Of a stretch of 64,000 nucleotides of DNA, positions 2,351-18,329 are shown piece by piece; position 1 is the stretch's first letter; every line of letters begins with the position of its first letter. Where the stretch lies: assembly GCA_043823745.1 (NCBI GenBank), contig JBDRAN010000003.1, positions 2,958 to 66,957 of the forward strand, read 5' to 3'. The notes beneath the pieces were generated by a model. It was not told the origin of the DNA, made no database searches, and was given only the letters and a program-made list of their open reading frames with translations. The DNA comes from Candidatus Omnitrophota bacterium. Lineage in GTDB: Bacteria; Omnitrophota; Gorgyraeia; Duberdicusellales; 4484-171. Both the position numbers and the translations under genes were made by a program.

Positions 2351-3379
2351 ATGCAGGAAAAAACGAACGTATTCATTTCTGAAGAAAACTTCATAAAGCT
2401 CTTGGAAAGCCTTTCGCGCGAATACCGGGTGGTTTCCCCGCAAGGAACAGAGAACTTTATGTGGCAAGAAACAACCGCCGCCACGCATAAACCCTATCGC
2501 GCTATCAGTTCCATACGACAATTCCTTATCCCGCCCGTCGAATGGCTCAGCGATTATTTTAAAAACGACTCCGGATCCCATAAGCCCTACTGCATCGTCA
2601 ATGCAAAAAATTGCGATCTCGCATCGCTGGCGACACATGATTTCGTATTCCTGGGAGAGACTCCCGACCAGCGCTACATGGAAATGCGCGAACGCAACCT
2701 CATTATTTCAAGCGACTGTACGTCTTTTAAAAATGTCTGTTTTTGTCTGGCGCTCGATATAAAGCCTTATCCTGAAAAACTTTTTGACCTCAATCTATCG
2801 CCTATCAAAAACGGCTATCTGGTTGAAATCGGCTCAACCAAAGGCCGCGAGACTGTTACCGCTAACCCGGCGCTGTTCCAGGAACCATTAGACGCACAGA
2901 TGCTTGCCCGTCAAGAGATTCGAAAAGAGGTGAATGAACGACTCTGGTATCATCTGAAGTCACAAAATCTTCCTCCAAAACAAGAACTACACCGCTTGAT
3001 AAAAAATGGCTACGAGCATGGAGTCTGGCAGGAAGAATCGACCCGCTGTGTTGAATGTGGCGCGTGTATCATGAATTGCCCCACCTGCCACTGCTTTTTG
3101 CTTTTTGACCAAAAAAAAGAACAGGGTTACCTGAGGGGAAGGGTCTGGGATGGGTGCCAATTAAAAAATTTTACGCGCGTTGCCGGAGGCGCGAATCCGC
3201 TTAAAATGCGCAGCCACCGGCTTCGTAACCGCTATATCAAGAAATTTGAGTTTTTCCCTGATATCATGAACGCATATGCCTGTACCGGCTGTGGACGTTG
3301 CATCGAATGCTGCTCCGGTAAGATCGATTTGCGCCATATCTTTAAGTGTCTGGCCGGAACAGAACCCATAAAAACGTAA
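2351..3379 (+). CDS. FeS subunit, sulfhydrogenase beta (HydB) / anaerobic sulfite reductase AsrA-like
   Basis: Two ferredoxin-type motifs, CVECGACIMNCPTCHC and CTGCGRCIECC. The N-terminal region is typical of HydB/AsrA. It is immediately followed by a HydG/AsrB-like gene. Confidence 0.7.
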   Translation: MQEKTNVFISEENFIKLLESLSREYRVVSPQGTENFMWQETTAATHKPYRAISSIRQFLIPPVEWLSDYFKNDSGSHKPYCIVNAKNCDLASLATHDFVFLGETPDQRYMEMRERNLIISSDCTSFKNVCFCLALDIKPYPEKLFDLNLSPIKNGYLVEIGSTKGRETVTANPALFQEPLDAQMLARQEIRKEVNERLWYHLKSQNLPPKQELHRLIKNGYEHGVWQEESTRCVECGACIMNCPTCHCFLLFDQKKEQGYLRGRVWDGCQLKNFTRVAGGANPLKMRSHRLRNRYIKKFEFFPDIMNAYACTGCGRCIECCSGKIDLRHIFKCLAGTEPIKT

Positions 3380-3385
3380 ATTGTA

Positions 3386-4201
3386 ATGAAAAACATCTAT
3401 TTACCCAAAAAAGTTACGATTACCAAAATTATCGAAGAAACACCGACAATTAAAACATTTGTCTTTAAGCCTGAGTCCGAGTTTTCTTTTTTAACAGGCC
3501 AATTTGTGGAGTTAACATACCCGGGTGCGGGAGAAGCTCCTTTCACACCTTCTTCCGATCCCAGTAGAAAGGATGCATTTGAAATAACAATCATGAAGGT
3601 AGGTACGGTAACTGAGTTATTCCACCGGGCACAGCCGGGAGACGTTCTGGGTATACGCGGACCCTACGGTAAAGGCTACCCCCTGGATACGTTTAAAGGG
3701 AAAGAATTATTGATCGTCGGCGGAGGAGTAGGCCTTGCGCCACTACGCTCTCTTATCTACGCGCTCTATCAACGCATCAATGATTTCAAAAAAATTGTTA
3801 TCTGTTACGGCGCACGCACCCCTCAGGATATCATCTATAAATACCAGATCGATGAGTTCAAGAAGCAAAAAAATGTCGAATTTCGCTTGACCGTCGACAA
3901 GGGGGATCCGGCCTGGAAGGGAAATGTAGGCCTGGTTACCTCGATTCTTACGAATCTACCGATTAATATAAAGGAAGCAGTAGGTATTGTCTGCGGCCCC
4001 CCGATTATGATGAAATTCGCCAACTTAAAACTTCTTGAGCTGGGCTTTGAAACTACAAATATTTATCTTTCTCTGGAGAAAAACATGAGCTGCGGCCTTG
4101 GTAAGTGCGGACATTGCCGCCTCGGCAAATATTACATCTGTAAGGACGGTCCGGTATTTCGCTATGAAGATATTAAGAACATTCACGATGCCTGGGATTA
4201 A
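3386..4201 (+). CDS. FAD/NAD(P)H-binding 2Fe-2S subunit, sulfhydrogenase gamma (HydG) / AsrB / PyrK-like
   Basis: FNR-like FAD-binding barrel, GGGVGLAPL NAD(P)-binding motif and a C-terminal CGLGKCGHCRLG...C 2Fe-2S motif. Confidence 0.8.
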   Translation: MKNIYLPKKVTITKIIEETPTIKTFVFKPESEFSFLTGQFVELTYPGAGEAPFTPSSDPSRKDAFEITIMKVGTVTELFHRAQPGDVLGIRGPYGKGYPLDTFKGKELLIVGGGVGLAPLRSLIYALYQRINDFKKIVICYGARTPQDIIYKYQIDEFKKQKNVEFRLTVDKGDPAWKGNVGLVTSILTNLPINIKEAVGIVCGPPIMMKFANLKLLELGFETTNIYLSLEKNMSCGLGKCGHCRLGKYYICKDGPVFRYEDIKNIHDAWD

Positions 4202-4349
4202 ATCGCTACAGACTGCAAGCCACAAGATTAAAATCCTGTAGCCTGTCCCGTTTCCTATATCGATAGAGCGGGTGCGGGACGCCCCGATCCTTATTATATG
4301 TTTTAGGGGTAACGGGGCTGAAGCTTGTAACCTGAAGCATAAAGAATTT

Positions 4350-4850
4350 ATGAAAAAATTATTTCTCGATTTAGAAAAATGCGACGCCTGCCCCGAGTGT
4401 GTGGTGAAATGCAGCTATATCTACCATCCGCAGAATAACGGCATCGGGAGCATTCGGGAGCTTGCGACCTTCGCGCTGATTTGTCATCGCTGCGAAGAAG
4501 CTCCCTGTGTGAACTCCTGTTATCATAAGGCGCTCGAAAAAGAAACCGATGGTATCGTGCGAAGAGCTAAGATGCTGTGCACCTCATGCAAAACCTGCAG
4601 CATCGCCTGTCCGTTTGGCGTAATATTTCCTGATTTTCTGCAATATCTTGATTCACGCTGCGACTTTTGCATTGGAAAGAAAACTGAACCGGCATGCATA
4701 CTCACATGCCCGTATCACGCGATAGAAACGCGAGAAATAGAGAATGAAGATATCACCCAGGGGATTTATCTTGTTTCTGATATGCTGGCGGTAAAACACC
4801 CCAGGAAATGGTTCCTGGACGACAAGGCGCTCTATATTAAAAAAAGATAA
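4350..4850 (+). CDS. Multi-cluster 4Fe-4S ferredoxin subunit (HycB/HyfA-like)
   Basis: Four Cys-rich cluster motifs: CDACPECVVKC, CHRCEEAPCVNSC, CTSCKTCSIACP and CDFCIGK...C. Start moved to MKKLF at 4350. Confidence 0.7.
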   Translation: MKKLFLDLEKCDACPECVVKCSYIYHPQNNGIGSIRELATFALICHRCEEAPCVNSCYHKALEKETDGIVRRAKMLCTSCKTCSIACPFGVIFPDFLQYLDSRCDFCIGKKTEPACILTCPYHAIETREIENEDITQGIYLVSDMLAVKHPRKWFLDDKALYIKKR

Positions 4851-4852
4851 CG

Positions 4853-5791
4853 ATGTGCCCACGATACCTTCTATATTTTAACTATCTCATTTTTCCCGGA
4901 ATTCTTTTTTCCCTCTTTATGGGGGGTATGGGCTGGTGGTTTGAGCGGAAGCTTACCGCGCGCTTTCAATATCGCGTAGGCCCTCCCTGGTATCAAAGCT
5001 TCATGGATGCAGCCAAACTATTCGTTAAAGAAACACTCATACCTGACAATGCGCTTAAACCCCTCTTTATTGCCGCCCCCATCATAAGTTTCTCCGCGGC
5101 GGCAACTTTTACGGTGCTCGTGGGACAAATTTATTTTACCGGCACAAACCCGGTCGCTGACGCAATCGTTCTCTTATATCTTTTGGTCATACCGCCGCTT
5201 TTTGTAATACTGGGCGCATTTTCATCGCGCAATCCCTTAGCACTGACCGGCGCGGCGCGGGAAATAAAAATGATGCTTGCCTATGAGTTTATTTTTATTA
5301 CGGTTCTTGTCATCGTCATTATTAAATCGGGCGGCTCAATCTTATTTTCCGATATCATCAGTGCCCAAAGCGCTACGCACATGCATATCGCGAGTTTCTC
5401 CGGTGCCATTGCGTTTTTTCTTGGGATTTTTTATATTCAAGCGAAATTGGGAATCGTGCCTTTTGACGTGGCGGAGGCGGAACAAGAAATTATGGCCGGG
5501 ACCATGATTGAATATTCAGGCTCGCTTCTTGGACTGTATCGGCTCGCGAAAATGTTCCTTTATTTTTCACTACCGCTTTTTATCACCATCCTGCTTTTTT
5601 CCGGAACACAGACCACCCTTATCGGAAAAATACTGCACCTTGTAATCGTCTATGGCGTAATAATGCTGATCGTTTCGGTCATAAAGAATATTAATCCGCG
5701 GGCGCGGGTCAAAGATGCCTTGGGATTTTTTTGGTTTTTCTTATTTCCCCTGGGCCTTGTCGGGATTATACTGGCTATGAACGGACTTTAA
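4853..5791 (+). CDS. Membrane subunit, NuoH/HycD/MbhM family
   Basis: NuoH signature ERKLTARFQYRVGP and eight TM helices. Confidence 0.85.
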   Translation: MCPRYLLYFNYLIFPGILFSLFMGGMGWWFERKLTARFQYRVGPPWYQSFMDAAKLFVKETLIPDNALKPLFIAAPIISFSAAATFTVLVGQIYFTGTNPVADAIVLLYLLVIPPLFVILGAFSSRNPLALTGAAREIKMMLAYEFIFITVLVIVIIKSGGSILFSDIISAQSATHMHIASFSGAIAFFLGIFYIQAKLGIVPFDVAEAEQEIMAGTMIEYSGSLLGLYRLAKMFLYFSLPLFITILLFSGTQTTLIGKILHLVIVYGVIMLIVSVIKNINPRARVKDALGFFWFFLFPLGLVGIILAMNGL

Positions 5792-6214
5792 ATGGGCTTA
5801 AAAGAACTCATACTTACTAAATCGCTCTGGGTATTCCACTTAAGCGTGGGCAGTTGTAACAACTGCGACATCGAAATTATTGACTGCCTTACTCCGCGTT
5901 TCGATATTGAGCGACTCGGTATGCAGCTTGCCGCAAGCATCAGACATGCCGATGTGCTGCTCGTTACCGGCGCGCTTAACAAAAAATCGACGCCGATGCT
6001 TAAAAACCTCCTTACGCAGGCACCAAAGCCCTGTTTTGTGGTTGCGGTAGGAACGTGCCCGTGCTCTCGACATATGTTTAAAAACAGTTATAATACCGTA
6101 GCCGCCCTCGATGAAGTGATACCCGTTGATCTTTACATCCCGGGTTGCCCGCCCAAACCCGAAGCGATTATCGCGGGAGTGGCAAAACTTATCAAGAAGG
6201 TGACGCGAAAATGA
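5792..6214 (+). CDS. [NiFe] hydrogenase group-4 small subunit (NuoB/HycG/MbhJ-like)
   Basis: Proximal 4Fe-4S cysteines (CNNC...C...GCPP) of the NuoB fold. Confidence 0.9.
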   Translation: MGLKELILTKSLWVFHLSVGSCNNCDIEIIDCLTPRFDIERLGMQLAASIRHADVLLVTGALNKKSTPMLKNLLTQAPKPCFVVAVGTCPCSRHMFKNSYNTVAALDEVIPVDLYIPGCPPKPEAIIAGVAKLIKKVTRK

Positions 6215-6645
6215 TACAAGAACAAGTCAAAGAAAAGTTAGGAAAAAAAACAACCGACTGGAAGGCAACCAGCAGCCGCAGGATATACTTTACGATCGCG
6301 CAGAAAGATATCAGCGACGTTGGAAAAATCCTGCATAAAGATATGAACATGCGCCTCGCCACGATTAGCGGAGTGGATGAGCAGACGCACTTCGAACTTA
6401 TCTATCACTTCAGCCACGATGCAACAGGAGAGCTGTTCAATGTACGCGTATTGTTAACCGACCGAAAAAATCCATGCATCGATTCACTCTCGACACTCTT
6501 TGAGGCTGCTGACTGGTCAGAACGTGAAATCCATGAGATGCTCGGCATTGATTTTAAGGGGCATCTCAATCTCAAACATCTCTTATTAAACGACGCCTGG
6601 CCCCAGGGAAAATATCCGTTACGAAAGGATTATGTCAATGAGTGA
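6211..6645 (+). CDS. NuoC-like 30 kDa subunit (HycE N-domain/MbhK-like)
   Basis: ATGA overlap with the upstream gene. NuoC-family sequence with FELIYHF and DWSEREIHEMLGI motifs. Confidence 0.8.
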   Translation: MIQEQVKEKLGKKTTDWKATSSRRIYFTIAQKDISDVGKILHKDMNMRLATISGVDEQTHFELIYHFSHDATGELFNVRVLLTDRKNPCIDSLSTLFEAADWSEREIHEMLGIDFKGHLNLKHLLLNDAWPQGKYPLRKDYVNE

Positions 6646-7825
6646 AAAAAAAGTAATACCCATCGGCCCCTATCATCCGCTCCAGGAAGAGCCTGAATTT
6701 TTTAAGCTCATCGTTGAGGGCGAACGCGTTACGGAGCTTATCATCGAGATCGGCTACAACCATCGCGGTATCGAGAAACTGGCGGAGTCAAAACACTGGG
6801 ACCAAGTTGCGTTCGCGGTGGAGCGCATCTGCGGTATATGCTCAACGTCGCATCCCTTTGCCTATGTCTTGGCGGTCGAGGACCTCCTGGGCATTGCCGT
6901 CCCTGAGCGTGCCAGCTACATCCGCATGATCATCGATGAAATGCAGCGTCTCCATTCCCATCTCTTATGGCTTGGCTTGGCCGGCCACTTTATCGGCTAC
7001 AACACTATTTGGATGTGGGCATGGAAAGCGCGAGAGCCGATCCTTGATCTTTTTGAACACATCACCGGCAACCGCCAGCATTATGCAATGATGAAAATAG
7101 GAGGAGTTCGCCGTGATATCAGAGAAGAGGACTATCCGGCGATACATAAAGCGCTTAAGGAACTCTATCCTACGCTTACCATGTTTGCCAAAGCTGTTAA
7201 CGATGACCCGGTAATACAGAAGCGCACCAAAGATGTCGGTATTTTAACAAAAGAGAAAGCGATTTCCTTTGGCGCGCTGGGCCCCATTGCCCGCGCTTCC
7301 GGCGTTGATATTGATGTCCGTCGAGATGACCCCTACGCGCTCTACGCGAACGTAAATTGGTCGGTCGTAGTCAAAGACAGTGGCGACATCTATGATAAGG
7401 TTCTGGTACGGATCCTTGAGATGTTTGAATCCTGTTCTATTATCCAGCAGTGCGTAACCAAGATCCAACCAGGCCCCATAGAGACGGAAGTCAGGGATAT
7501 ACCGCCGGGAGAAGGCATCGGCAGGGTAGAGGCCCCGCGTGGCGAATGCTTCCATTACGTAAAAAGCGACGGTACCAACAGGCCGGTACGCCATAAAATA
7601 AGAGCGCCCTCCTTGATGAATGTTCCTACTAACCTGGTTACTGTTCCCGGGTATACTATTTCTGACGCAGCGATCACTCTGGCAGCGGTGGACCCCTGTT
7701 ACTGTTGCACCGAACGAAGCGCTGCATTCAGCAAAAACGGCAAAAAAATATTTACCGGCGAAGAACTCGTTGCGCTCTCAATCGAAAAAACAAACCAACT
7801 ACGTAAACAGTATGATAACCAATAA
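6632..7825 (+). CDS. [NiFe] hydrogenase large (catalytic) subunit, group 4 (NuoD fold)
   Basis: N-terminal RICGICSTSH and C-terminal DPCYCCTER Ni-Fe ligand motifs. A roughly 30-aa C-terminal extension follows, the usual maturation-protease substrate. Confidence 0.9.
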   Translation: MSMSEKKVIPIGPYHPLQEEPEFFKLIVEGERVTELIIEIGYNHRGIEKLAESKHWDQVAFAVERICGICSTSHPFAYVLAVEDLLGIAVPERASYIRMIIDEMQRLHSHLLWLGLAGHFIGYNTIWMWAWKAREPILDLFEHITGNRQHYAMMKIGGVRRDIREEDYPAIHKALKELYPTLTMFAKAVNDDPVIQKRTKDVGILTKEKAISFGALGPIARASGVDIDVRRDDPYALYANVNWSVVVKDSGDIYDKVLVRILEMFESCSIIQQCVTKIQPGPIETEVRDIPPGEGIGRVEAPRGECFHYVKSDGTNRPVRHKIRAPSLMNVPTNLVTVPGYTISDAAITLAAVDPCYCCTERSAAFSKNGKKIFTGEELVALSIEKTNQLRKQYDNQ

Positions 7826-9437
7826 TCTATTCCTGGTTGATCCGCTCTCCATATTAATAAGCATTTGTATCTGCTTCTTTACGGTTATCCTCTTTATCTT
7901 TTCGCTCGGCTTCATAAAAACGCAAAGATTTACATATTACACCTGGTTCTTCGCAACTGCCGTAGCCTCCCTTGGTGTTGTTCTCTCAAACCATCTTATC
8001 GCTATTCTCGTCTTCTGGGGATTCCTTGGCCTCGCAATTTTTAAGCTCATTAACGTGTGCCCAGATGCAGAGGCCGCCCGTGCCGCAAAAAAAACATTGA
8101 TTATCATTGGGGGAACTGACGCTTTCCTTTTACTCGGATTTCTTTTATACATGAAACTCGCTGCCTCTACATTTATCACCGGAACATCACTTGCAATACA
8201 CGACTCTCAAACGCTTCTAGCATTTCTCTGTATCGCGGCAGGCGCGTTTGCAAAAGCAGGGTGCATGCCGTTTCATACCTGGATTCCCGATACCGCGGCA
8301 AGTGCACCAGTGCCGGTCGTTGCCTACCTGCCGGCATCGCTTGATAAACTCCTGGGAATCTATCTCCTTATACGCATCGCCAAAGATACGTTTATACTGA
8401 ATGCAACTGCCCAAGGAATCCTTTTCCTTGTCGGGTCAATGACCATTTTATGCGCGGTAATGATGGCGCTCGTTCAACACAATATTAAGCGACTCCTGGG
8501 CTACCATGCGGTATCTCAAGTTGGCTACATGATTCTTGGGATCGGCTGCGCGAGCCCCCTTGGGTTTGCCGCAGCACTTTTTCATATGATTAATCACGCG
8601 ATATATAAATCATGCCTATTCCTCGCTGCCGGAAATGTGGAAAAGCAAACGGGAGCAACCGAAATGGATAAGTTGGGCGGACTAGCAAAGTATATGCCGA
8701 TAACGTTTATTGTTACCTTAATTGCTTCCTTTTCCATTTCAGGCATTCCGCCGTTTAACGGCTTTGTCTCAAAATGGATGGTCTATCAGGGCCTGATAGA
8801 GTTCGCGCAAAGAATCACTTCACTGAAACTACAGATCCTTGCGATTGGAGGCCTGGTTATCGCGCTGGCAGGTTCGAGCTTAACGCTTGCCTCATTCTTA
8901 AAATTAAACTATGGCGTATTTTTAGGAAGCCCGCGCGCGAAAACAAAAGAAGCACGTACAATGCTTCTGATCGCGCCCGTTATTCTTGCCGGCCTCTGTG
9001 TCATTTTCGGAATTTTTTCTCGATACCTGATAATGCCTGTTCTTGTCAGCAGCGTAGGCTATTTTATCTTACCGGGGCTTTGGAACCCCCTCTTAATCAC
9101 TACACTCATTGTCGCGGGCATACTCATCGGCTTTATCTTATTCACTTTTACCGGGAAAAAATTGCGGCAAAGCCCCTCGTTTATCGGCGGAGAACCGCTT
9201 GCGCCAGCAGAGGAAGTCCGGATTGAGGATTTTTATAATACAATAAGAGAATTACGAATACTGAAACGTATTTATCGGCTGGCCGAAGAGAAATTCTTTG
9301 ATATATACGACCAAAGCTCAAATTTTGTTTTCGGAATAGGCAGGTTTTTCCAGTATCTGCATAACGGCGTTTTGCCGACTTATCTAGTCTGGACGCTTTT
9401 AGGCATGATCGGCTTGTTTTTTGTGCTGCTAAGATAA
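7812..9437 (+). CDS. Antiporter-like membrane subunit (MrpA/MrpD/NuoL family)
   Basis: Fourteen or more TM helices and NuoL/MrpD-type conserved motifs. The start at 7812 overlaps the large-subunit stop. Confidence 0.8.
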   Translation: MITNNLFLVDPLSILISICICFFTVILFIFSLGFIKTQRFTYYTWFFATAVASLGVVLSNHLIAILVFWGFLGLAIFKLINVCPDAEAARAAKKTLIIIGGTDAFLLLGFLLYMKLAASTFITGTSLAIHDSQTLLAFLCIAAGAFAKAGCMPFHTWIPDTAASAPVPVVAYLPASLDKLLGIYLLIRIAKDTFILNATAQGILFLVGSMTILCAVMMALVQHNIKRLLGYHAVSQVGYMILGIGCASPLGFAAALFHMINHAIYKSCLFLAAGNVEKQTGATEMDKLGGLAKYMPITFIVTLIASFSISGIPPFNGFVSKWMVYQGLIEFAQRITSLKLQILAIGGLVIALAGSSLTLASFLKLNYGVFLGSPRAKTKEARTMLLIAPVILAGLCVIFGIFSRYLIMPVLVSSVGYFILPGLWNPLLITTLIVAGILIGFILFTFTGKKLRQSPSFIGGEPLAPAEEVRIEDFYNTIRELRILKRIYRLAEEKFFDIYDQSSNFVFGIGRFFQYLHNGVLPTYLVWTLLGMIGLFFVLLR

Positions 9438-9443
9438 ATTTTT

Positions 9444-9983
9444 ATGGAACTGCATATATTATTATTATTTATGATTATTGGTGCAATTGTGGCGATTGAA
9501 GCTCGGGATCTCTTGTCGAGCGTAATTGCCATAGGCGCGGTAGGTTTTGCATTATGTTTAGCTTTCTTGGTTTTAAAAGCGCCAGATTTAGCGATTACCC
9601 AGTTAGTAGTGGAGATTCTTTGTTTGATTATTTTAATCCGCGCAACCATTAAGAGAGATTTACCTTTGACTATTGAAGGCCGTTGGATCTTTAACACACT
9701 TTCGACGTTAGCGTTCATTGCGGTATTTCTTTTCTTCGCCTATAATGCGCTGCAAGAATTACCGGCTTTTGGAAATCCCATCATGAGGGTGGTACAGAAA
9801 TATTTTGAAGAAGGGGTTAGTAAAACCGGGGCGGTAAACCTCGTTACGGCTGTAATCCTTGATTTTAGAGCCTATGATACCTTAGGCGAAGCCACGGTAT
9901 TATTTACTTCGGTAATCGGCATTATGGCAGTTTTGCGCCAACGGGGAAGAAAAAAAATAGAGGAGACCGAGGATGATCGATAA
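9444..9983 (+). CDS. Mrp/Mbh membrane subunit (MnhB N-domain-like, DUF4040)
   Basis: Polytopic small subunit in a conserved Mrp-module position. Confidence 0.55.
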   Translation: MELHILLLFMIIGAIVAIEARDLLSSVIAIGAVGFALCLAFLVLKAPDLAITQLVVEILCLIILIRATIKRDLPLTIEGRWIFNTLSTLAFIAVFLFFAYNALQELPAFGNPIMRVVQKYFEEGVSKTGAVNLVTAVILDFRAYDTLGEATVLFTSVIGIMAVLRQRGRKKIEETEDDR

Positions 9984-10422
9984 TCCTAAAACAGGGATGT
10001 CTTTAATTGTAAAGACCATTACCCGCCTAACCATAGGCTTGATACTAATTTTTGGCATCTATATTGTTTTACACGGCCATCTCTCTCCGGGGGGCGGATT
10101 TGCGGGAGGCGTAATTATTGCTCTTTCTTTTGTGCATCTTATGCTTGCGTTTGGCAAAGAGGCAGCGCTCAGCAAGATTACCAAAAATACCGCCGCCAGT
10201 TTAGAAAGTATCGGCGCTCTAATGTTTTTGTCTATAGCTTTATTGGGATTTTTGGGAGGATCATTTTTTCTAAATTTCATCGGCAAAGGGAAACCATTTC
10301 ATTTATTGAGCGCCGGAACTATTCCTTTAAGTAATATAGCAATCAGCTTAAAAGTGGGAGTAGGATTGTTTGCGATATTTTTAGCATTAACAGTACTAGA
10401 AGGGGTAAAGAAGAAAGATTGA
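9973..10422 (+). CDS. MrpB/MnhB-like subunit
   Basis: MnhB signature HGHLSPGGGFAGG. Confidence 0.7.
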   Translation: MIDNPKTGMSLIVKTITRLTIGLILIFGIYIVLHGHLSPGGGFAGGVIIALSFVHLMLAFGKEAALSKITKNTAASLESIGALMFLSIALLGFLGGSFFLNFIGKGKPFHLLSAGTIPLSNIAISLKVGVGLFAIFLALTVLEGVKKKD

Positions 10423-10475
10423 CCAATACGACTACTTGTACGGGTCAATGGCGCCAGAGGTAGCCAGCAAGAATC

Positions 10476-10814
10476 ATGAGCCTTTATTTTTTATGTTTAG
10501 CTTTATTTTGCGTGGGCCTTTACGGGGTGCTACGCAAACGAAACCTGGTTAAAATAATCATAGGCTTAGGAATCATAGAATATTCCATGAACCTATTTTT
10601 TGTTTTATTAGGTTACCGCGCGCACGGCCGCGCGCCCATTGACGCACAAGATCAAAACATTTTAACTATGGTTGATCCGCTCCCTCAAGCATTAGTGCTT
10701 ACCTCGATCGTCATCGGTTTAGGGGTTACGGCGTTAGTTATTTCGATCGCGGTCAGGATTTATGAAAAATACGGCACCTTTGATATCACAAAAATAAAAA
10801 AACTTAAAGGTTAA
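10476..10814 (+). CDS. MrpC/NuoK-like subunit
   Basis: Three-TM protein of about 110 aa with a NuoK-like profile. Confidence 0.7.
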   Translation: MSLYFLCLALFCVGLYGVLRKRNLVKIIIGLGIIEYSMNLFFVLLGYRAHGRAPIDAQDQNILTMVDPLPQALVLTSIVIGLGVTALVISIAVRIYEKYGTFDITKIKKLKG

Positions 10815-12320
10815 ATGCATAACGCAAACATTATTCCTTTTTTTGTCATTATACCGCTCCTGTGCGCCTTTTTGGTTTCTCTTTTAGGTAGATACTTAAA
10901 ACGTACTTTTGTTCATTCGCTCTCAGTGATCTCCTGCTTTTTGCTGATGCTTCTTTCTTTTTACAGCCTGTATATTTTACGCAGCAACCCGACTTTGGTT
11001 TATAAAATTGGCGGGTGGCTTCCGCCCTTTGGTATTTGCATGGTCTTAGACGGCTTAAGCTGTTTTATGCTGATAACCGTAAATCTGGTTGCTTTCTTTG
11101 TCTGTATATATTCGCTGAGCTATATGGAAAAATATACGGATAAGCCAAAGTTTTATACTTTGTTTTTCTTAATGCTGACCGGCATGAACGGCTTAATTGT
11201 AACCGGGGACTTATTCAATCTCTTTGTCTTCTTAGAAATTGCTTCAATCGCTAGTTACGCATTAGTTGCTTTCGGCACCGAGGCAGAGGAACTCGAAGCA
11301 GCTTTTAAATATACCATTATGGGCTCGGTTGCTTCCAGTTTCATTTTCATCGCAATTGCGTTCTTGTACGGCTTTACTTCCACCCTGAATATGGCTGATA
11401 TGGCGCAGATTTTAAGCGCAAAACCAAATACGTTCCTTATTCCTTTTGTGTCTGTGCTTTTTTTAATGGGTTTTGGGTTAAAGGCAGCCCTGGTGCCTTT
11501 TCATGCCTGGCTTCCCGATGCGCACCCTTCCGCGCCTGCCTCGATATCTGCTATGCTTTCAGGCGTTTTAATCAAGGCTTTGGGTGTGTATGCGTTAGTG
11601 CGTATTTTCTTTAATATTATTGGTGTTACCAACGGTTTCCTCTCGACTTTAATGTTTTTGGGGGCACTTTCAATGCTGGTGGGAGTAATTTTAGCGCTTT
11701 CCCAATGGGATTTAAAAAGGCTCCTCGCATACCACTCCATAAGCCAAATTGGCTATGTAGTGTTAGGTATTGGCTTAGGCACGCCCTTGGGGATATTGGG
11801 CGGCTTGTTTCATCTCTTTAATCATTCCATATTTAAATCTCTGCTTTTTTTAAACGCTGGGGCGATAGATTATGCTACGGGCACACGCGAGTTAAAGGAA
11901 ATGTCCGGCCTAAAAGAAAAAATGCCTATAACCTCTAATACTAATCTCATTGCCTCAATGTCTATTGCGGGAATCCCGCCGTTTAACGGTTTCTGGAGCA
12001 AACTTATCATTATTTTAGCCTGCGTGGAAACGGGCCATATTGGTTATGCGATCGCAGCAGTGCTTGGCTCTATTTTAACCTTAGCAAGTTTTATGAAAGT
12101 ACAAAAGTTTGCCTTCTTAGGTACACTGAGAGAAAAATATAAAAATATTACAGAAGTTCCTTTTACGATGAAGGTATCTATGATTTGTTTAGCCATAATA
12201 TGCATTTCCGGCGGACTTTTATTATTGCCGTCTTTTAAGTTTTTCCTTAATGGCGCCGTCAATACAGTGTTGGAAAGCAGAAACTATGCCACACTAGTTT
12301 TTGAAGCAGCTTTAAAATGA
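10815..12320 (+). CDS. Antiporter-like subunit (MrpD/NuoN family)
   Basis: About 500 aa and 14 TM helices, with the conserved PFHAWLPDAH motif. Confidence 0.8.
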   Translation: MHNANIIPFFVIIPLLCAFLVSLLGRYLKRTFVHSLSVISCFLLMLLSFYSLYILRSNPTLVYKIGGWLPPFGICMVLDGLSCFMLITVNLVAFFVCIYSLSYMEKYTDKPKFYTLFFLMLTGMNGLIVTGDLFNLFVFLEIASIASYALVAFGTEAEELEAAFKYTIMGSVASSFIFIAIAFLYGFTSTLNMADMAQILSAKPNTFLIPFVSVLFLMGFGLKAALVPFHAWLPDAHPSAPASISAMLSGVLIKALGVYALVRIFFNIIGVTNGFLSTLMFLGALSMLVGVILALSQWDLKRLLAYHSISQIGYVVLGIGLGTPLGILGGLFHLFNHSIFKSLLFLNAGAIDYATGTRELKEMSGLKEKMPITSNTNLIASMSIAGIPPFNGFWSKLIIILACVETGHIGYAIAAVLGSILTLASFMKVQKFAFLGTLREKYKNITEVPFTMKVSMICLAIICISGGLLLLPSFKFFLNGAVNTVLESRNYATLVFEAALK

Positions 12321-12811
12321 AAAGCAGAATTGTATTATTCATTTTTGGTTATGTTATTTGGATGCTTTTAGGCTGGTCGCTTGATTTTGCCAACGCTGTA
12401 GTGGGTATTTTTGTAGCAGGGCTTGTTGCTATGTTAACCGGTGATATGTTTAGCCGCAGGCCACATCACTTTAGCCACCTCAGTAGATATTTATGGTTTG
12501 CGTATTATGTTCCGTTATTTCTCTGGGAATGCCTTAAGGCAAATATTGATGTAGCCCTGCGGGTAAGTAATCCAAGATTACCCATCAATCCCGGTATCGT
12601 CAAGGTTAAAACAACGTTAAAATCAGATACTGCCCTTACTTTTCTGGCAAACTCCATTACGCTTACGCCGGGCACTTTTTGCGTAGATATAAACCCTAAA
12701 GAGAGCATTCTCTACATCCATTGGCTTCACGTTAAATCCCAAGATCAACAGAAGGCAACACAACTAATTGTAGATAAATTTGAGAAGGTTTTAAAAAAAA
12801 TATTTGAATAA
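12317..12811 (+). CDS. MrpE/MnhE-like subunit
   Basis: Size, TM pattern and position match MnhE. Confidence 0.6.
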   Translation: MKSRIVLFIFGYVIWMLLGWSLDFANAVVGIFVAGLVAMLTGDMFSRRPHHFSHLSRYLWFAYYVPLFLWECLKANIDVALRVSNPRLPINPGIVKVKTTLKSDTALTFLANSITLTPGTFCVDINPKESILYIHWLHVKSQDQQKATQLIVDKFEKVLKKIFE

Positions 12812-13182
12812 TGAAATTAAAATATACATATCTTAGCTGGTGCTTAGGGTTATTAGCTATATCCACGATATTATTTTTTATCAGTTTCTACCCGGTACCG
12901 TCACTCCTACGATGGCAATCACCAATACTTTCGCGCTGCTTTTTCATCTTAATGATGTGCTTCGGCATATGTTTGTGGCGGATAATACGGGGGCCAACTG
13001 CGGCTGACCGGGCAGTGGCTATAGATACTATTGGTATTTTGATTGTAGGCTTTTGCGCCATTCTCAGTATCTCCACTGCAAGAGATTGGTATATTGATAT
13101 TGCGATTGCCTGGGCACTGCAAAGTTTTATCGGAGCGCTCGCTTTGGCTAAATACTTGGAAGGCAAAGGGTTTGATGAATAG
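12811..13182 (+). CDS. MrpF/MnhF-like subunit
   Basis: Small three-TM protein in the MrpF position. Confidence 0.55.
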   Translation: MKLKYTYLSWCLGLLAISTILFFISFYPVPSLLRWQSPILSRCFFILMMCFGICLWRIIRGPTAADRAVAIDTIGILIVGFCAILSISTARDWYIDIAIAWALQSFIGALALAKYLEGKGFDE

Positions 13183-13226
13183 TACTGTCCACGCGCTATA
13201 AGACGAGATGTAAAACGGAGAAAACG

Positions 13227-13565
13227 ATGAACGAAATTATCGGATACATATTTATCGTAGTCGGGTTAGCTTTTGATATATTTGGCTGTGTCGGCCTAAT
13301 CCGCCTTCCTGATGTATACACCCGTCTGCAAGCAACTACCAAATGCGTTACGTTAGGCACGTGCAGTATTCTTGTGGGCACCATCATTATCAAAGGTTTT
13401 ACGGGCACCGGAATAAAGGCTTTTTTATGCATAATATTTTTGCTTTTAACTGCTCCCGTTGCCGCACATGCGCTTTCTCGCGGCGCGCACGCGGCGGGAG
13501 TAAAACTCTGGGAAAAATCAGTTTGCGATAAATACGCTGATGATAAAAAAACAAAGAAAATCTAA
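13227..13565 (+). CDS. MrpG/MnhG-like subunit
   Basis: MnhG signature LIRLPDVYTRLQATTKCVTLG. Confidence 0.75.
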   Translation: MNEIIGYIFIVVGLAFDIFGCVGLIRLPDVYTRLQATTKCVTLGTCSILVGTIIIKGFTGTGIKAFLCIIFLLLTAPVAAHALSRGAHAAGVKLWEKSVCDKYADDKKTKKI

Positions 13566-13581
13566 ATTGAACGGGTAAGAT

Positions 13582-14184
13582 ATGAAATATCCAAAATTAA
13601 GAGAAATCAAGGGCGCGTTACAATCTTTATTTACGAAAGCCTATACCGCAAAGTTTCCCTTTGCGCCCCATACGCCTTCTGCGCATTTTCGGGGAAAACC
13701 TTATTATGATGAAGAAAAATGTATCGGCTGCACTGCGTGCGTCAATGTCTGCCCATCCGGAGCATTGAGCTTTGATGATGAAAGCTCCAAGGAAAACGCC
13801 CTGCGGAGACTTACCGTGCGTTGGGATATCTGTATCGAATGCGGCCAGTGCCAGCTTAATTGTCCGACCGAAGAAGGTATAAAGCTTTCTGGGGAGTTTG
13901 ATATCTCGACCACCGAAAAGCGGGATGATCTGCATCAAAATATCGAAAAAGAAATGGTAATCTGCGAACATTGCAACAGTCCGATTGCATGCAAAGACCA
14001 CATTGTCTGGACCATACAAAAATTAGGGCCACTCTACACCACCAACACTTCCCTAATAAACTTTCAGCAACAATCTCTCCAGGCCGGCGATACAATTCCA
14101 AAAAAAGAAAACACCATCGGACGATCCGATCGTTTTAAGGTCCTGTGCCCGGCCTGCCGCAGAGAAGCAGTGTTTAGTTCATAA
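13582..14184 (+). CDS. NuoI-like 2x[4Fe-4S] subunit (HycF/EchF/MbhN-like) with a Cys-containing C-terminal extension
   Basis: CIGCTACVNVCP and CIECGQCQLNCP motifs. The extension carries extra CEHC...C and CPAC cysteines. Confidence 0.8.
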   Translation: MKYPKLREIKGALQSLFTKAYTAKFPFAPHTPSAHFRGKPYYDEEKCIGCTACVNVCPSGALSFDDESSKENALRRLTVRWDICIECGQCQLNCPTEEGIKLSGEFDISTTEKRDDLHQNIEKEMVICEHCNSPIACKDHIVWTIQKLGPLYTTNTSLINFQQQSLQAGDTIPKKENTIGRSDRFKVLCPACRREAVFSS

Positions 14185-14227
14185 ACGCTAATTACCGCTA
14201 ATCTAAAAACGCTAATAACCGCTAATA
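14185..14227 (+). repeat. Direct repeat aacgctaatWaccgctaat x2 (CGCTAAT motif family)
   Basis: Related inverted copies occur at 18268-18320 and 21130-21150. Confidence 0.6.
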
Positions 14228-14241
14228 AAAAAATCACGCCC

Positions 14242-15345
14242 ATGCAAAAAACGCCCCGATGTCTGGCTTTCGATCTCGGTAAGGTGATTTTTGATTTTGA
14301 CTATACGGTTGCGCTCGAACGCATCAAGAATGACATCACGGTGCCCATCGAAAAGGTGCTGGATGAAGTCTTTATGAATAATTGTTTCCTTGATTTTGAA
14401 AAAGGGCTCGTTTCAGACAAAGAGTTTTACGCGCAATTTATCCGTACCTTCGGCTCATCGATTTCCTATGGTAGATTCGTTGATATCTGGTCTGATATTT
14501 TTACTCCTAAACAGGAAATTATCACGCTCCTGGGCCGGCTGCGTCTGCTATACCCGCTGTACCTGGTCTCAAACATCAATGAATTGCACTACGAACATCT
14601 ATACCGCAAACACCCCGATGTTTTTGGCCTTTTCAATGGGCTCCTGCTTTCCTATCAATTAAAATCACTAAAGCCGGAAGAGAAATTTTACGCGCATCTA
14701 AAAAAAGTAAGCGGTTGCGAATACCGGGAAATCGTCTATGTTGACGACCGCAAAGATTTAATTGACGCCGCGCAAAAACTTAACCTTGCCTGTATACTGT
14801 TCCAGGATTTCACGACGCTTCTTGAGGGCCTCGTGCAGGCGGGAATAGAAATTCCTACTGGCGCTGAAGCGAATACGCTCACCAGGCTACGAAACACTCT
14901 CTCCGGCGCAAAACGCCCACTCATTGTCGGTATCGGAAACACGATGCGCGCTGACGATGGGGCAGGTGCCGTGATTGCTGCGACACTTGTTGGCGCCATC
15001 AACATCACCGTCATCAACGCCGGCGCATCAATTGAAAATTATCTTGGAAAAATTGACCATTACAATCCTGACTGCGTCATTATTGTTGATGCGGCTGAGT
15101 TCCAGGAACATGAACGCTTCGCGCTGTATGACGTAGGTATGCTACAAAACATCTCTTTACATCTTACACATGACTCGTCGCTGAAACTGGCTCTTACCTA
15201 CTTGCAAAATATAAAACCCTCTGATATACTGATTTTGACGATTAGGCCAAAAACATTCACACTCGGCGCGCCGATGAGTGCTGACGTACATACGACCGTG
15301 GAAATTCTTAATACATTTTTCTTAAATAATTTTCGATTATCATGA
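14242..15345 (+). CDS. Fusion protein: N-terminal HAD-superfamily hydrolase domain + C-terminal hydrogenase maturation endopeptidase (HycI/HybD family)
   Basis: The N-terminal half has DxD-type HAD motifs (FDLGKVIFDFDYT, YVDDRKD). The C-terminal roughly 150 aa carry a HycI-like GIGNTMRADDGAGAV motif and look HycI-like throughout. Confidence 0.7.
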   Translation: MQKTPRCLAFDLGKVIFDFDYTVALERIKNDITVPIEKVLDEVFMNNCFLDFEKGLVSDKEFYAQFIRTFGSSISYGRFVDIWSDIFTPKQEIITLLGRLRLLYPLYLVSNINELHYEHLYRKHPDVFGLFNGLLLSYQLKSLKPEEKFYAHLKKVSGCEYREIVYVDDRKDLIDAAQKLNLACILFQDFTTLLEGLVQAGIEIPTGAEANTLTRLRNTLSGAKRPLIVGIGNTMRADDGAGAVIAATLVGAINITVINAGASIENYLGKIDHYNPDCVIIVDAAEFQEHERFALYDVGMLQNISLHLTHDSSLKLALTYLQNIKPSDILILTIRPKTFTLGAPMSADVHTTVEILNTFFLNNFRLS

Positions 15346-15716
15346 AGCGTCTTATACTCATTCTTATGGTAGTGCCTATGCTTTGTTCAGGCTGTATACC
15401 CCTTTTAGTGGGGGCCGGCGTCGTAACCGGGTATTCGTTAAGTAATGACGCTGCGATCGGAAACCTTTCGGTTCAATATGACCGCCTCTGGAAGCGCTGC
15501 GAACTAACACTTGAAAAAATGCAAGCAACGATCCTAGAAGCCAAACAATCAAAAGGCCTCATCAAGGCACGTATGTCGGATAATGATGTAACGATTAGAA
15601 TCGACACCATTGACAACGCAAACCAGCGCTTACGGGTCTCTGCGCGGCGGTTCATGATGCCCAAACCACAATTTGCCCAAAAAGTCTTCTTTAAAATCAC
15701 CGAAAACCTTAAGTGA
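15342..15716 (+). CDS. Lipoprotein, hypothetical
   Basis: Signal peptide with a Cys lipobox (MLCSGC). Confidence 0.5.
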   Translation: MKRLILILMVVPMLCSGCIPLLVGAGVVTGYSLSNDAAIGNLSVQYDRLWKRCELTLEKMQATILEAKQSKGLIKARMSDNDVTIRIDTIDNANQRLRVSARRFMMPKPQFAQKVFFKITENLK

Positions 15717-16507
15717 AAGAACTACTTCTTGCATTTAGCCTCCTGTTTGCTGCCTGCACTCCGGAACTAACCACAAAACCATCAGAAGTAATTTCAAATT
15801 ATAATGATGTTGGGGTTCTTGAAGTAATCGACGGCGACACCATTAAGCTTGCCGACGGAAAACTTCTGCGTTATATCGGGATTGACACTCCGGAAACCCG
15901 CATCAAAAAAGGAAACCGTTTCATCTATTCCCCCCAGCCGGGAGCGGTAGAAGCAACTACGTTTAATAAATCACTGGTGTCCGGAAAAAAGGTACGTATT
16001 GAGTTTGATGTGCAAAAAACCGACAAATATGGCAGGCTCCTTGGATACTGCTACGTCGGTGATACGTTCGTCAATGCCCGACTGATAGAGGAGGGTTACG
16101 CCGTCCTTTTAACCTATCCGCCGAACGTCAAATACGCTGATCTTTTCGTAAAGCTTCAGAAACAAGCACGCGAGGCCCGGCGCGGCCTCTGGGGAGCCTA
16201 TGCGGTCATTGATCATGCCCAGGCACACCGCTTCATCAACCAGGTACGCACCGTCCGCGGGACTGTGCTCAATACGCATCTTACAAAAAAATGCATGCTG
16301 TTGAATTTTGGAAGTAACTATAAAGACGACTTCACCATTGTCATTTTTGCCAACTCATATCGATTTTTCGAAAAAGCCGGTATCGACCCGCTAACCTTTT
16401 ATAAAGGGAAAACCGTCCAGGCCACCGGCAGAATCCGCTCCTATAACGGCCCGGAAATCATTGCAAATGGCCCGCTGGATATAGAAGTCGTGGGGGCTTC
16501 TTCATAA
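15713..16507 (+). CDS. Secreted thermonuclease (SNase/staphylococcal-nuclease-like) lipoprotein
   Basis: Lipobox AAC and the SNase core motifs VIDGDTIKL...IDTPET...KYGRLL. Confidence 0.75.
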   Translation: MKELLLAFSLLFAACTPELTTKPSEVISNYNDVGVLEVIDGDTIKLADGKLLRYIGIDTPETRIKKGNRFIYSPQPGAVEATTFNKSLVSGKKVRIEFDVQKTDKYGRLLGYCYVGDTFVNARLIEEGYAVLLTYPPNVKYADLFVKLQKQAREARRGLWGAYAVIDHAQAHRFINQVRTVRGTVLNTHLTKKCMLLNFGSNYKDDFTIVIFANSYRFFEKAGIDPLTFYKGKTVQATGRIRSYNGPEIIANGPLDIEVVGASS

Positions 16508-16933: not shown

Positions 16934-18277
16934 ATGGCTGAAGACAAACTGACGAAAATAGTATCTCTTTGCCGCAGGCGGGGTTTTGTATTCGGGGGTT
17001 CAGAGATCTACGGTGGCCTTGCGAGCTTCTGGGATTACGGACCCCTGGGGGTAAGGCTTAAGAAGAAAATCAAGGATGTCTGGTGGGATACCTACGTAAA
17101 CCGCCGCAACGACATCGTCGGCCTTGATTCCAGTATCATCATGCATGAAGATGTTTTCCGTGCCTCCGGCCACTTGGAAGGTTTTGCTGACTTGCTGGTT
17201 GATTGCCCGGGATGTAAGAAACGCTTTCGCCTTGATAAGCTTGAAAAAATTTCAGAAAACCTTTATTCCTGCCCTGATTGCAGCGCCAAAATCGATACTC
17301 AAAAAAGTAAAGCGCGTAAATTTAACCTCATGCTTAAAACCAACGTCAGCGCGACCGAAGATGAACCAACCTACGGTTACCTGCGACCTGAAACCGCACA
17401 GGGCATTTTTACTAACTTTGCGAATGTGCTCGATACCACTCACAAAAAACTCCCCTTAGGCATCGCACAAATCGGAAAAGCCTTCAGAAACGAAGTAACT
17501 ACGGGGAGCTTTATCTTCCGAATGAAAGAATTCGAGCAAATGGAAATTGAGTACTTTGTTAACCCGCACGATTCCGACGAATACTACCGCCAATGGGTCA
17601 CGGAACGCTTTACCTTTTACGTTGAAAAAATCGGCTTGAGCAAGGAAAACTTACGGCTGCGCGAGCATGGCAAAGAAGAGCTTGCGCATTACGCTAAATC
17701 CTGCACCGATATCGAATTCAATTTTCCGTTTGGCTGGAGCGAGCTCGAGGGAATTGCGAACCGCGGAAACTTCGATTTAACCGAACATTCACGGGTAAGC
17801 AAAAAAGATCTTTCTTACTACGACGACCAGAAAAAAGAACGATTTGTCCCTTTTGTCATCGAACCTTCCAGCGGCGTGGACAGAACGTTCTTTGCGGTAA
17901 TCAGCGACGCCTACTATGAAGAAGTGGTCAAAGATAAAGTACGCGTGGTATTGAAGTTTAAACCCTCGATGGCCCCGTACACTGCGGCAGTATTTCCCTT
18001 ACTTAAAAATCGGCCGGAGCTGGTCGAACTTGCAAAAAATATTTTTTGTGATATAAAAGAAAAATTCCCTGCCGTATACGATGATTCCGGCGCGATCGGG
18101 AAACTTTATCGCCGGCAGGATGAAATCGGAACGCCATTCTGTATTACCGTTGACGTAGAAAGCCTGAATGACGGTAAAATCACCGTCCGCGACCGCGACA
18201 GCATGCAACAGGAACGTATCGCTGCGGATAAAGTATTAGAATTTCTTGTGGAAAAAGTAACTAACGCTTACCATTAG
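16934..18277 (+). CDS. glyQS: Glycine--tRNA ligase, alpha2 homodimeric type
   Basis: Class II aaRS motifs over 447 aa, similar throughout to the archaeal/eukaryotic-type GlyRS. Confidence 0.9.
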   Translation: MAEDKLTKIVSLCRRRGFVFGGSEIYGGLASFWDYGPLGVRLKKKIKDVWWDTYVNRRNDIVGLDSSIIMHEDVFRASGHLEGFADLLVDCPGCKKRFRLDKLEKISENLYSCPDCSAKIDTQKSKARKFNLMLKTNVSATEDEPTYGYLRPETAQGIFTNFANVLDTTHKKLPLGIAQIGKAFRNEVTTGSFIFRMKEFEQMEIEYFVNPHDSDEYYRQWVTERFTFYVEKIGLSKENLRLREHGKEELAHYAKSCTDIEFNFPFGWSELEGIANRGNFDLTEHSRVSKKDLSYYDDQKKERFVPFVIEPSSGVDRTFFAVISDAYYEEVVKDKVRVVLKFKPSMAPYTAAVFPLLKNRPELVELAKNIFCDIKEKFPAVYDDSGAIGKLYRRQDEIGTPFCITVDVESLNDGKITVRDRDSMQQERIAADKVLEFLVEKVTNAYH

Positions 18278-18329
18278 CGGTAATTCGCGCTTTAAATTAG
18301 CGTAAATTAGCGTCCAAAAGGAGGACACC

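Follow-up and report, generated by a model that had tools for sequence, protein, structure and literature searches.

What a hydrogenase maturation endopeptidase might have to do with the phosphatase to which it is joined is the question raised by one gene of a Candidatus Omnitrophota bacterium. Hydrogenase maturation endopeptidases are usually treated as small, single-domain, single-purpose proteins. The gene in question lies at 14242..15345 (+) in a 64,000-nucleotide stretch of contig JBDRAN010000003.1 (assembly GCA_043823745.1), referred to here as the window, and according to domain profiles and a structural model it encodes a YihX-like HAD phosphatase followed by a linker helix and a HycI-type endopeptidase. 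A preliminary description, made from the sequence alone, had pointed to this combination, called it unusual and proposed that the phosphatase-like part may add a regulatory or substrate-recognition step. The fusion is real and inherited across a small clade, and there is no evidence of new chemistry so far. The protein is probably bifunctional, two complete and mechanistically independent enzymes being made together, with the fusion serving mainly to secure their co-expression. A fusion to an intact phosphatase that is stable and shared by a whole clade gives the maturation endopeptidase family a new architecture. Furthermore, the presence of fused, split and protease-decayed versions in related genomes constitutes a natural experiment on whether anything besides the six Hyp proteins and the protease has a part in [NiFe] cofactor assembly in uncultured anaerobes.

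Integrity and distribution of the fused gene

The gene is a single open reading frame (ORF) without interruption, coding for 367 amino acids (aa) plus the stop, and it starts 57 bp past the last gene of a long co-directional operon. The exact protein is present in NCBI under the title 'MAG: hydrogenase maturation protease [Candidatus Omnitrophota bacterium]' (P0001), MAG standing for metagenome-assembled genome. At 90% identity there are 42 fused clusters, namely the window protein and 41 full-length fusions that are 34-54% identical to it, and an exhaustive profile search of 1.84 billion representative proteins recovered about five full-length clusters at 50% identity together with junction-spanning fragments. 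A long fused ORF is found in 22 species-representative genomes, the carriers being almost all Candidatus Omnitrophota. The HAD-HycI architecture is genuine but limited to a narrow group; no description of it was found in the literature searched, and the early judgement that it is unusual holds. All the audited catalytic residues of both halves are kept in 23 of 25 fused genes, the exceptions being a degenerate gene (L040) and one whose contig ends before H310 (L047).

That an assembly or sequencing artefact merged two genes is vanishingly improbable. A stop and start near codon 205-215, which would have separated two genes by a frameshift, was looked for and none is there; the linker (aa 203-225) contains neither a stop nor an in-frame ATG, GTG or TTG, which precludes a separate synthesis of the protease domain by internal initiation. 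Dozens of independent assemblies from different projects show this architecture again, with a clean junction and a linker of conserved length, on which ground a frameshift or chimera was rejected. Besides, the linker is modelled as a confident helix, and nothing was found in favour of an artefact.

In public databases the fused family is named 'hydrogenase maturation protease' in some entries and 'HAD hydrolase' in others. Should the phosphatase be independent, the family would offer both a tidy case of gene fusion within a conserved neighbourhood and, given these switching database names, a caution for annotation. A separate matter of labelling concerns L028 (JAIWAR010000015.1) and several 'uncultured Planctomycetia' loci, in which synteny of the Omnitrophota type (HydG, aldo-keto reductase (AKR), epimerase, HAD, DUF3568, SNase, tRNA synthetase and PPDK) appears under Methanosarcinales or Planctomycetia MAG names; these labels are probably binning or labelling errors.

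The N-terminal half is a complete HAD phosphatase domain

The N-terminal domain (aa 1-200; 14242..14841, +) was recognised by alignment of the family profile with YihX and by Foldseek as a HAD phosphatase domain with a Rossmannoid core and a helical C1-type cap. Searched against the PDB, the family profile matches Escherichia coli YihX (2b0c/8pne) end to end over aa 5-189 (E = 8.6e-28). The corresponding part of the model reaches target TM-scores of 0.84-0.87 to YihX and BT-2542 (0.84-0.88 when 3cnh is included), with the cap helices at aa 21-100, between strand 1 and strand 2. The HAD fold that had been suspected is thereby confirmed. The single sequence remains a little under the HAD cut-offs, with 24.5 bits for PF00702 (26.4), 20.3 for PF13419 (23.8) and 27.1 for TIGR01509 (29.4); a Pfam check, as had been recommended, places the protease family PF01750 above its cut-off and the two HAD families just under theirs.

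The four motifs of HAD subfamily IA are complete, D11, S110, K144 and D168-D169 all being invariant. Motif I (D11-L-G13-K-V15; 14272..14286, +), with the nucleophile Asp, aligns with FDLGNV of YihX; its residues D11, L12, G13 and V15 are invariant in the 25 fused proteins, and it carries a Gly at position Asp+2 (A9-F-D11-L-G13-K-V15) exactly as YihX does (D6-L-G8-N-V10). Motif II (S110-N111; 14569..14574, +) aligns with L-S-N-T-N of YihX, motif III (K144 in K-P-E; 14671..14673, +) with R-K-P-E, and motif IV (D168-D169; 14743..14748, +), the predicted Mg2+ ligands, with F-F-D-D. Of the HAD motifs first proposed, the DD pair stands, since it is D168-D169, the true motif IV, but the hhDxDxT stretch is not motif I. 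That stretch, F17-D18-F-D20-Y-T22, was rejected because D18 and D20 align with D13 and D15 of YihX, and motif I itself (D11-x-G13) lies seven residues upstream.

To judge by its sequence, this domain falls within HAD subfamily IA, on the branch of YihX and BT-2542, yet it is no YihX equivalog. YihX is a fairly specific glucose-1-phosphate hydrolase that works with Mg2+ through an aspartyl-phosphate intermediate (PMC4251788). The score obtained here with the glucose-1-phosphatase equivalog model NF006991 (95.3 bits) is far under the cut-off of 295, and the substrate of YihX cannot be transferred to the domain. It would act as a Mg2+-dependent phosphomonoesterase with an aspartyl-phosphate intermediate on D11, its substrate being most likely a small phospho-metabolite and its job the same as that of the free 200-aa HAD of sister lineages.

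The C-terminal half is a HycI-type endopeptidase domain

The C-terminal domain (aa 226-367; 14917..15342, +) passes the family thresholds over aa 227-354, with 66.9 bits for TIGR00072 (cut-off 47.45) and 28.1 bits for PF01750 (cut-off 23). It aligns with PDB entries of HycI from Thermococcus kodakarensis (5zby, E 7.9e-14) and E. coli (2e85/2i8l, about 1e-6), and Foldseek pairs the modelled domain with 5zby at E 1.4e-10 and a target TM-score of 0.81. The model confidence (pLDDT) is mostly 87-96, with a dip to 66-77 at aa 301-330. The initial assignment to the HycI/HybD-type endopeptidases is thus borne out by profiles and structures alike.

Three residues are the predicted metal ligands. D239 (14956..14958, +), in the motif G-N-x4-D-D-G, is invariant and corresponds to the second D of GDDGAG in 2i8l; D283 (15088..15090, +), also invariant, aligns with D62 of E. 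coli HycI (IVDA); and H310 (15169..15171, +) aligns with H90 of the same protein (T-H). Conservation of H310 among the fused homologues is at least 90%; of the 24 genes that cover this position in full, 23 have the residue. The GDDGAG, IVDA and TH positions are those we take to be the HycI/HybD metal ligands Asp16 (Asp/Glu16), Asp62 and His90 (His90/93) in E. coli numbering.

The domain is nevertheless a divergent one. It scores 63.2 bits with the HycI equivalog model TIGR00142, whose cut-off is 119.1, while the standalone HycI of a related locus (L003) scores 119.9 bits and passes. On sequence grounds it is best described as a member of the peptidase A31 superfamily with predicted HycI-like action, and should not be filed as a HycI equivalog. 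A homologue search with the protease domain alone returned one match and, being limited by the word index, is uninformative.

The hydrogenase operon and the presumed substrate

The fused gene follows an operon (2351..14184, +) which family matches identify as an Mbh/Mrp-type membrane-bound [NiFe] hydrogenase of group 4. It encodes a ShyB/ShyC-like NAD(P)-linked module, a ferredoxin-like protein, NuoH/B/C, the large subunit, Mrp antiporter-like subunits and a terminal 2x[4Fe-4S] protein. The large subunit (6632..7825, +; PF00346, PF00374) is NuoD-like and carries an N-terminal (RICGICSTSH) and a C-terminal (DPCYCCTER) nickel-binding motif. The latter is followed by an extension of 35 aa (SAAFSKNG...QYDNQ; 7718..7822, +), so that the C-terminal extension to which the preliminary description had referred is indeed there after CxxCxx(H/R), as is typical of a cognate substrate. 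Its predicted removal would occur after Arg362, a position that we take from E. coli HycE. All fused-type loci from which the C-terminus of the large subunit could be read have DPCYCCTER with a tail of 34-38 aa, which makes nine species loci (L001/L011, L013, L018, L019, L021, L024, L026 and L043; that of L014 was not recovered).

Position points in the same direction. The fused gene is placed at the operon end, in the slot that hycI occupies in classical operons. The window shares this place directly after the last Mbh gene (Fer4) with 15 other species-representative loci (14 with flanks reaching further upstream, plus L025, in which only the end of the Fer4 gene is on the contig), except that a MazG-like gene is inserted between the two in four of them (L019, L021, L024 and L043). 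No other HycI homologue is present in those 15 loci, nor is there a second one in the 64-kb window, where the fused gene stands alone.

The C-terminal domain would be, then, the maturation endopeptidase of the Mbh-type [NiFe] hydrogenase encoded just upstream. By analogy with HycI acting on HycE, it would dock on the nickel-loaded large-subunit precursor through the D239/D283/H310 site and cut off the 35-residue tail after Arg362, between DPCYCCTER and SAAF, upon which the active site would close and the complex assemble. Proteases of this class recognise the precursor by the nickel that it contains (Theodoratou et al. 2000, as cited in PMC12134894).

A different view is that the protein is essentially a HAD phosphatase, and that the HycI-like half is decaying or non-catalytic, a pseudo-protease or scaffold, the hydrogenase being processed otherwise or not at all. 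Such a loss would explain that conservation is much lower in the C-terminal half than in the HAD half, that the former fails the HycI equivalog cut-off and that it is visibly degenerate in some relatives, by deletions or loss of the His: it has decayed beside an intact HAD half in L040/P0081 and P0083, deletions affect P0038-P0041, and the His is lost in P0040/41. This view is quite improbable, because 23 of 25 fused genes, the one of the window included, retain D239, D283, H310 and the GN(x4)DDG motif, the fold is confidently predicted, the gene takes the place of hycI in a window that has no further HycI, and a cleavable-type tail is conserved on the large subunit of all fused-type loci with a readable C-terminus. 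As for the degenerate relatives themselves (L040 9995-11062; P0081, P0083 and P0038-P0041), they keep the HAD half and E209 of the linker and have lost the GN...DD motif or suffered internal deletions. As far as upstream flanks could be examined, the last Mbh gene does not precede P0038 (L007/L008), and no hydrogenase gene was seen in the roughly 10 kb upstream of L040.

Probable autonomy of the two halves

The two domains are joined by a linker (aa 203-225; 14848..14916, +) that is predicted from model and sequence to form a helix at aa 207-222 (pLDDT 95-97) and that contains E209, invariant in 25 of 25 fused genes, the degenerate-protease gene included. The AlphaFold2 model, built on 25 fused homologues, has an overall pLDDT of 90.4 and a pTM of 0.88. 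The tight inter-domain packing suggested by that pTM, together with the conserved linker and its invariant glutamate, would suit a HAD domain that serves as a regulatory or substrate-recognition module for the protease. This proposal, the one advanced at the outset, does not agree with the pattern of conservation and is very improbable. No fusion-specific conserved substitution was found in the HAD domain when 25 fused proteins were compared with 26 closely related standalone HADs; 43 HAD positions conserved at 90% or more are identical in the two groups. Sister lineages have unfused orthologues of the domain that are about 50% identical to it. Since the constraints are the same whether the domain is fused or free, the HAD has not been remodelled as a regulatory module. 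It keeps the full phosphatase machinery, it is better conserved than the protease half, and it survives the decay of that half. Standalone HycI enzymes (2i8l, 5zby), besides, work without any extra module.

An intact HAD domain beside a decayed C-terminal half is to be expected if the two functions are separable. The protein looks like a complete enzyme with a divergent protease appended to it, rather than a protease for which an accessory module has evolved. Several observations weigh against such autonomy. The high pTM and the invariance of E209 suggest that the domains are packed rigidly rather than as beads on a string, and this modelled packing could mean functional coupling. The protease domain is divergent (63 bits with TIGR00142, against 120 for the standalone HycI of a neighbouring lineage) and its half of the protein is the less conserved. 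The HAD family is repeatedly linked to hyp and hyd maturation genes in varied arrangements, beyond what independence would lead one to expect. Finally, the order HAD-then-HycI is opposite to that of loci in which the two are separate genes, so that the origin of the fusion is left unexplained by read-through.

Linkage of the HAD family to maturation genes

The linkage to hyp and hyd genes brings in another explanation, namely that the HAD is an unrecognised accessory factor of hydrogenase maturation in Omnitrophota and that its fusion to HycI reflects a shared pathway. It could, for example, hydrolyse carbamoyl phosphate or a different acyl- or sugar-phosphate by which ligand synthesis is fed or proofread, possibly standing in for the acylphosphatase domain missing from the truncated HypF of related loci. 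The HAD family is indeed found near maturation genes in at least four arrangements, fusion to HycI being one. In three loci (L039, L044 and L049) HypE, a MazG-like gene and the HAD follow one another after a full hypA-F'-C-D-E cluster; in distant relatives (L057 and L070) the HAD abuts or overlaps a genuine HypE with the C-terminal PRIC, the other neighbours being unrelated to hydrogenases; and behind [NiFe] and [FeFe] hydrogenase clusters alike, HydG, with or without AKR and epimerase, precedes the HAD. In L044, the HypF-like protein consists of Kae1-like domains only. Moreover, a HAD_2 cluster is listed, without comment, among the genes near [NiFe] hydrogenases in a neighbourhood survey of 2025 (PMC12727194), and the cyanide ligands derive from carbamoyl phosphate, which is processed by full-length HypF (PMC12134894).

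Despite these associations, a role of the HAD in maturation appears unlikely, and the more specific version, in which the fusion is a Rosetta-stone signal for an accessory enzyme of cofactor maturation acting on carbamoyl phosphate or another phosphorylated precursor, slightly more so. Known [NiFe] maturation steps require no phosphatase, or at least we know of none that does. The clade broadly keeps its gene order, even among housekeeping genes (tRNA synthetase, PPDK, sigma factor), and the linkage may therefore be inherited synteny. The steadiest partners of the HAD gene are not hyp genes: they are those for the DUF3568 lipoprotein and the SNase nuclease, often with a MazG-like gene upstream. 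What is known of a truncated HypF comes from a related locus (L044). In the 10 kb upstream of L009, a divergent fused gene, no hydrogenase gene is present, while DUF3568 and SNase are kept downstream. About 27 of 30 distant HAD homologues lack a hydrogenase context, and the closest characterised relative is a sugar-1-phosphate phosphatase (PMC4251788). Two independent enzymes made together thus remain the preferred reading, and the company of DUF3568, SNase and the MazG-like gene hints at a role of the HAD in nucleotide or nucleic-acid salvage.

Some of the loci mentioned present features of their own. The distant standalone HADs (31-37% identity) are followed or overlapped by hypE in L057 (10001-11647), L070 (5788-7402) and L076 (70-1729); this hypE product is of the AIRS family and ends in PRIC in L057 and L070, and the remaining neighbours of these pairs (PAC2, M20 peptidase, D-Ala-D-Ala ligase and lysine aminomutase) have no relation to hydrogenases. 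The HypF-like protein of L044 (5924-7126) has at most 400 aa and consists of HypF_C and HypF_C_2 only, without the acylphosphatase, zinc-finger and YrdC-like part. The MazG-like gene codes for 104 aa, lies immediately 5' of the HAD gene (L044 9676-9990) and is absent from the window; it is also found in L009, L019, L021, L024, L032, L039, L041, L043, L047, L049 and L053. Its identity between genomes is 77-96%, against only 40-50% for the HAD genes of the same genomes, and it gave no NCBIfam match.

Fused and split loci and the origin of the fusion

A survey of homologous operons, which had also been recommended, yielded both fused and split versions among the 86 loci of the synteny table. In the fused layout, the Mbh genes up to Fer4 are followed by HAD-HycI, DUF3568, SNase, in some cases M48, then tRNA synthetase and PPDK. 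In the split layout, carried by L003, L033, L034, L037, L038, L056 and others, the order after Fer4 is HycI (150-170 aa), HypA, a HypC-HydE fusion, Rex, HydG, aldo-keto reductase, epimerase, HAD (about 204 aa), DUF3568 and SNase. L049 is likewise split, with a standalone HycI, maturation genes and a standalone HAD in this sequence, and the split loci have flanks like those of the window. The standalone HAD is about 50% identical to the N-terminal half of the window protein, as an orthologue; the standalone HycI is only about 31% identical to its C-terminal half. A neighbour-joining tree places the fused protease domains in one clade and the standalone HycIs in another.

The simplest route, a read-through fusion of adjacent genes after a deletion, was rejected. 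The domain order of the fusion (HAD-HycI) is the reverse of the gene order of the split loci (HycI...HAD), and a plain deletion of the intervening genes cannot yield it; the separate clade of the fused HycI adds to the same verdict. The route would instead have begun with a single fusion event in one Candidatus Omnitrophota clade, in which the HAD gene acquired a divergent HycI paralogue at its 3' end; loss of the standalone hycI would have followed, and the HAD-HycI gene would have come to the hycI position at the operon end. In a neighbour-joining tree of the HAD domains, fused and standalone forms are intermixed, as exemplified by the standalone L053 beside the fused L044. Built without support values, this tree does not tell how often the domains were gained and lost; it is compatible with a single fusion, after which the protease part was occasionally lost.

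The split-type loci offer an observation of their own (L003 4365-8080; L002, L033, L034, L037, L038, L056, L035, L045 and L051). The four genes after the Mbh genes and the standalone HycI encode a truncated HypA of 80 aa, a fusion of a HypC-like N-terminal part to a HydE-like radical SAM protein, Rex and a bona fide HydG, so that [FeFe]-type maturases lie inside a [NiFe] locus, and one of these maturases carries a chaperone domain of the [NiFe] type as its fusion partner. HydG is well above its cut-off (469.7 bits, cut-off 312), and the HypC-HydE fusion scores slightly under that of TIGR03956 (243.6 bits, cut-off 254.6). Nothing on a HypC-radical SAM fusion, and nothing specific on Omnitrophota Mbh or a HAD-Hyp linkage, was found in the literature searched. 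The HypC-HydE fusion could bear on the synthesis of the diatomic ligands.

Neighbouring genes and other features of the window

Two lipoprotein genes follow the fused gene. The first (15342..15716, +) encodes a small lipoprotein of the DUF3568 family (PF12092; lipobox MLCSGC) and the second (15713..16507, +) an SNase, a thermonuclease-like lipoprotein similar to NucI (PF00565). The stop of the fused gene overlaps the start of DUF3568 in the ATGA at 15342-15345, and the stop of DUF3568 overlaps the start of SNase (15713-15716), by which overlaps both genes are translationally coupled to the fused one. DUF3568 and then SNase are found 3' of the HAD gene in nearly all close relatives, whether fused or split.

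On the 5' side, the + strand of the gap before the fused gene has no terminator-like hairpin, and a scan for promoters and terminators around the gene gave a result no better than shuffled sequence. Two copies of a double repeat, CGCTAAT-N3-CGCTAAT, lie in that 57-bp gap (14186-14226, +). Two more, inverted, are located in the gap that separates the tRNA synthetase gene from that of PPDK and close around it (18273-18312, -), the first of them beginning within the final bases of the tRNA synthetase ORF. These four matches, against 0 expected from shuffles, may represent a regulator-binding site or a small intergenic repeat.

Further upstream, the hydrogenase operon opens (2351-4201) with Fe-S and FAD/NAD-binding subunits similar to sulfhydrogenase beta and gamma (ShyB/ShyC, AsrA/AsrB-like), which suggests an NAD(P)(H)-linked module on a membrane-bound group 4 hydrogenase. 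A listed ORF of 605 aa (7620-9437) overlaps the large-subunit gene by about 200 bp; its similarity to Mrp/NuoL-type proteins begins at about 7833, and its true start is probably just past the large-subunit stop at 7825. When the 64-kb window was searched by tblastn, none of HypA, HypC-HydE, HydG, Rex, AKR and epimerase of L003 was found, and none of HypA/F/C/D/E and MazG of L044.

Comparison with known systems

Among the nearest counterparts are the split loci of sister Omnitrophota (L003, L033, L038 and L056), which share with the window the Mbh operon and the downstream DUF3568, SNase, tRNA synthetase and PPDK genes. They differ in that HycI is a separate gene right after the operon, which passes the HycI equivalog cut-off, and in that the HAD is a separate gene 6 kb further on.

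On the protease side, the HycI of E. coli hydrogenase 3 (2i8l, 2e85) and that of T. kodakarensis (5zby) have in common with the C-terminal domain the fold (target TM-scores of 0.73-0.81), the metal-ligand positions of GN(x4)DDG, (I/V)VDA and TH, the place as final gene of a group 4 hydrogenase operon and a large-subunit substrate in which CxxCxxR is followed by a tail of about 32-35 aa. The known proteins are, however, single-domain and of about 150-160 aa, whereas here the domain is the C-terminal part of a 367-aa chain, only 22-29% identical to them, and its activity is a prediction from sequence.

On the phosphatase side, YihX (HAD4/HAD13), the alpha-D-glucose-1-phosphate phosphatase of E. 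coli (2b0c, 8pne, 8pno), aligns over its full length and shares DLGxV, S-N, K-P-E and DD, and BT-2542 of Bacteroides thetaiotaomicron (4dcc) shares the fold, within the same range of target TM-scores as YihX (0.84-0.87). Identity to either is only about 26-27%, and YihX is free-standing and without any link to hydrogenases, in contrast to the HAD described here, fused to a HycI-type domain.

As regards the combination of both halves, soluble epoxide hydrolase (EPHX2) likewise carries an N-terminal phosphatase of HAD subfamily IA and a C-terminal domain with an unrelated hydrolytic reaction. Its HAD domain is detectably related to the one of the window protein (profile E 2e-7) and is also among the Foldseek matches. 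EPHX2 is eukaryotic and the partner of its phosphatase is an alpha/beta-hydrolase, not a metalloendopeptidase-like fold; by analogy, it is useful only as a precedent, in that a HAD fusion can hold two independent activities.

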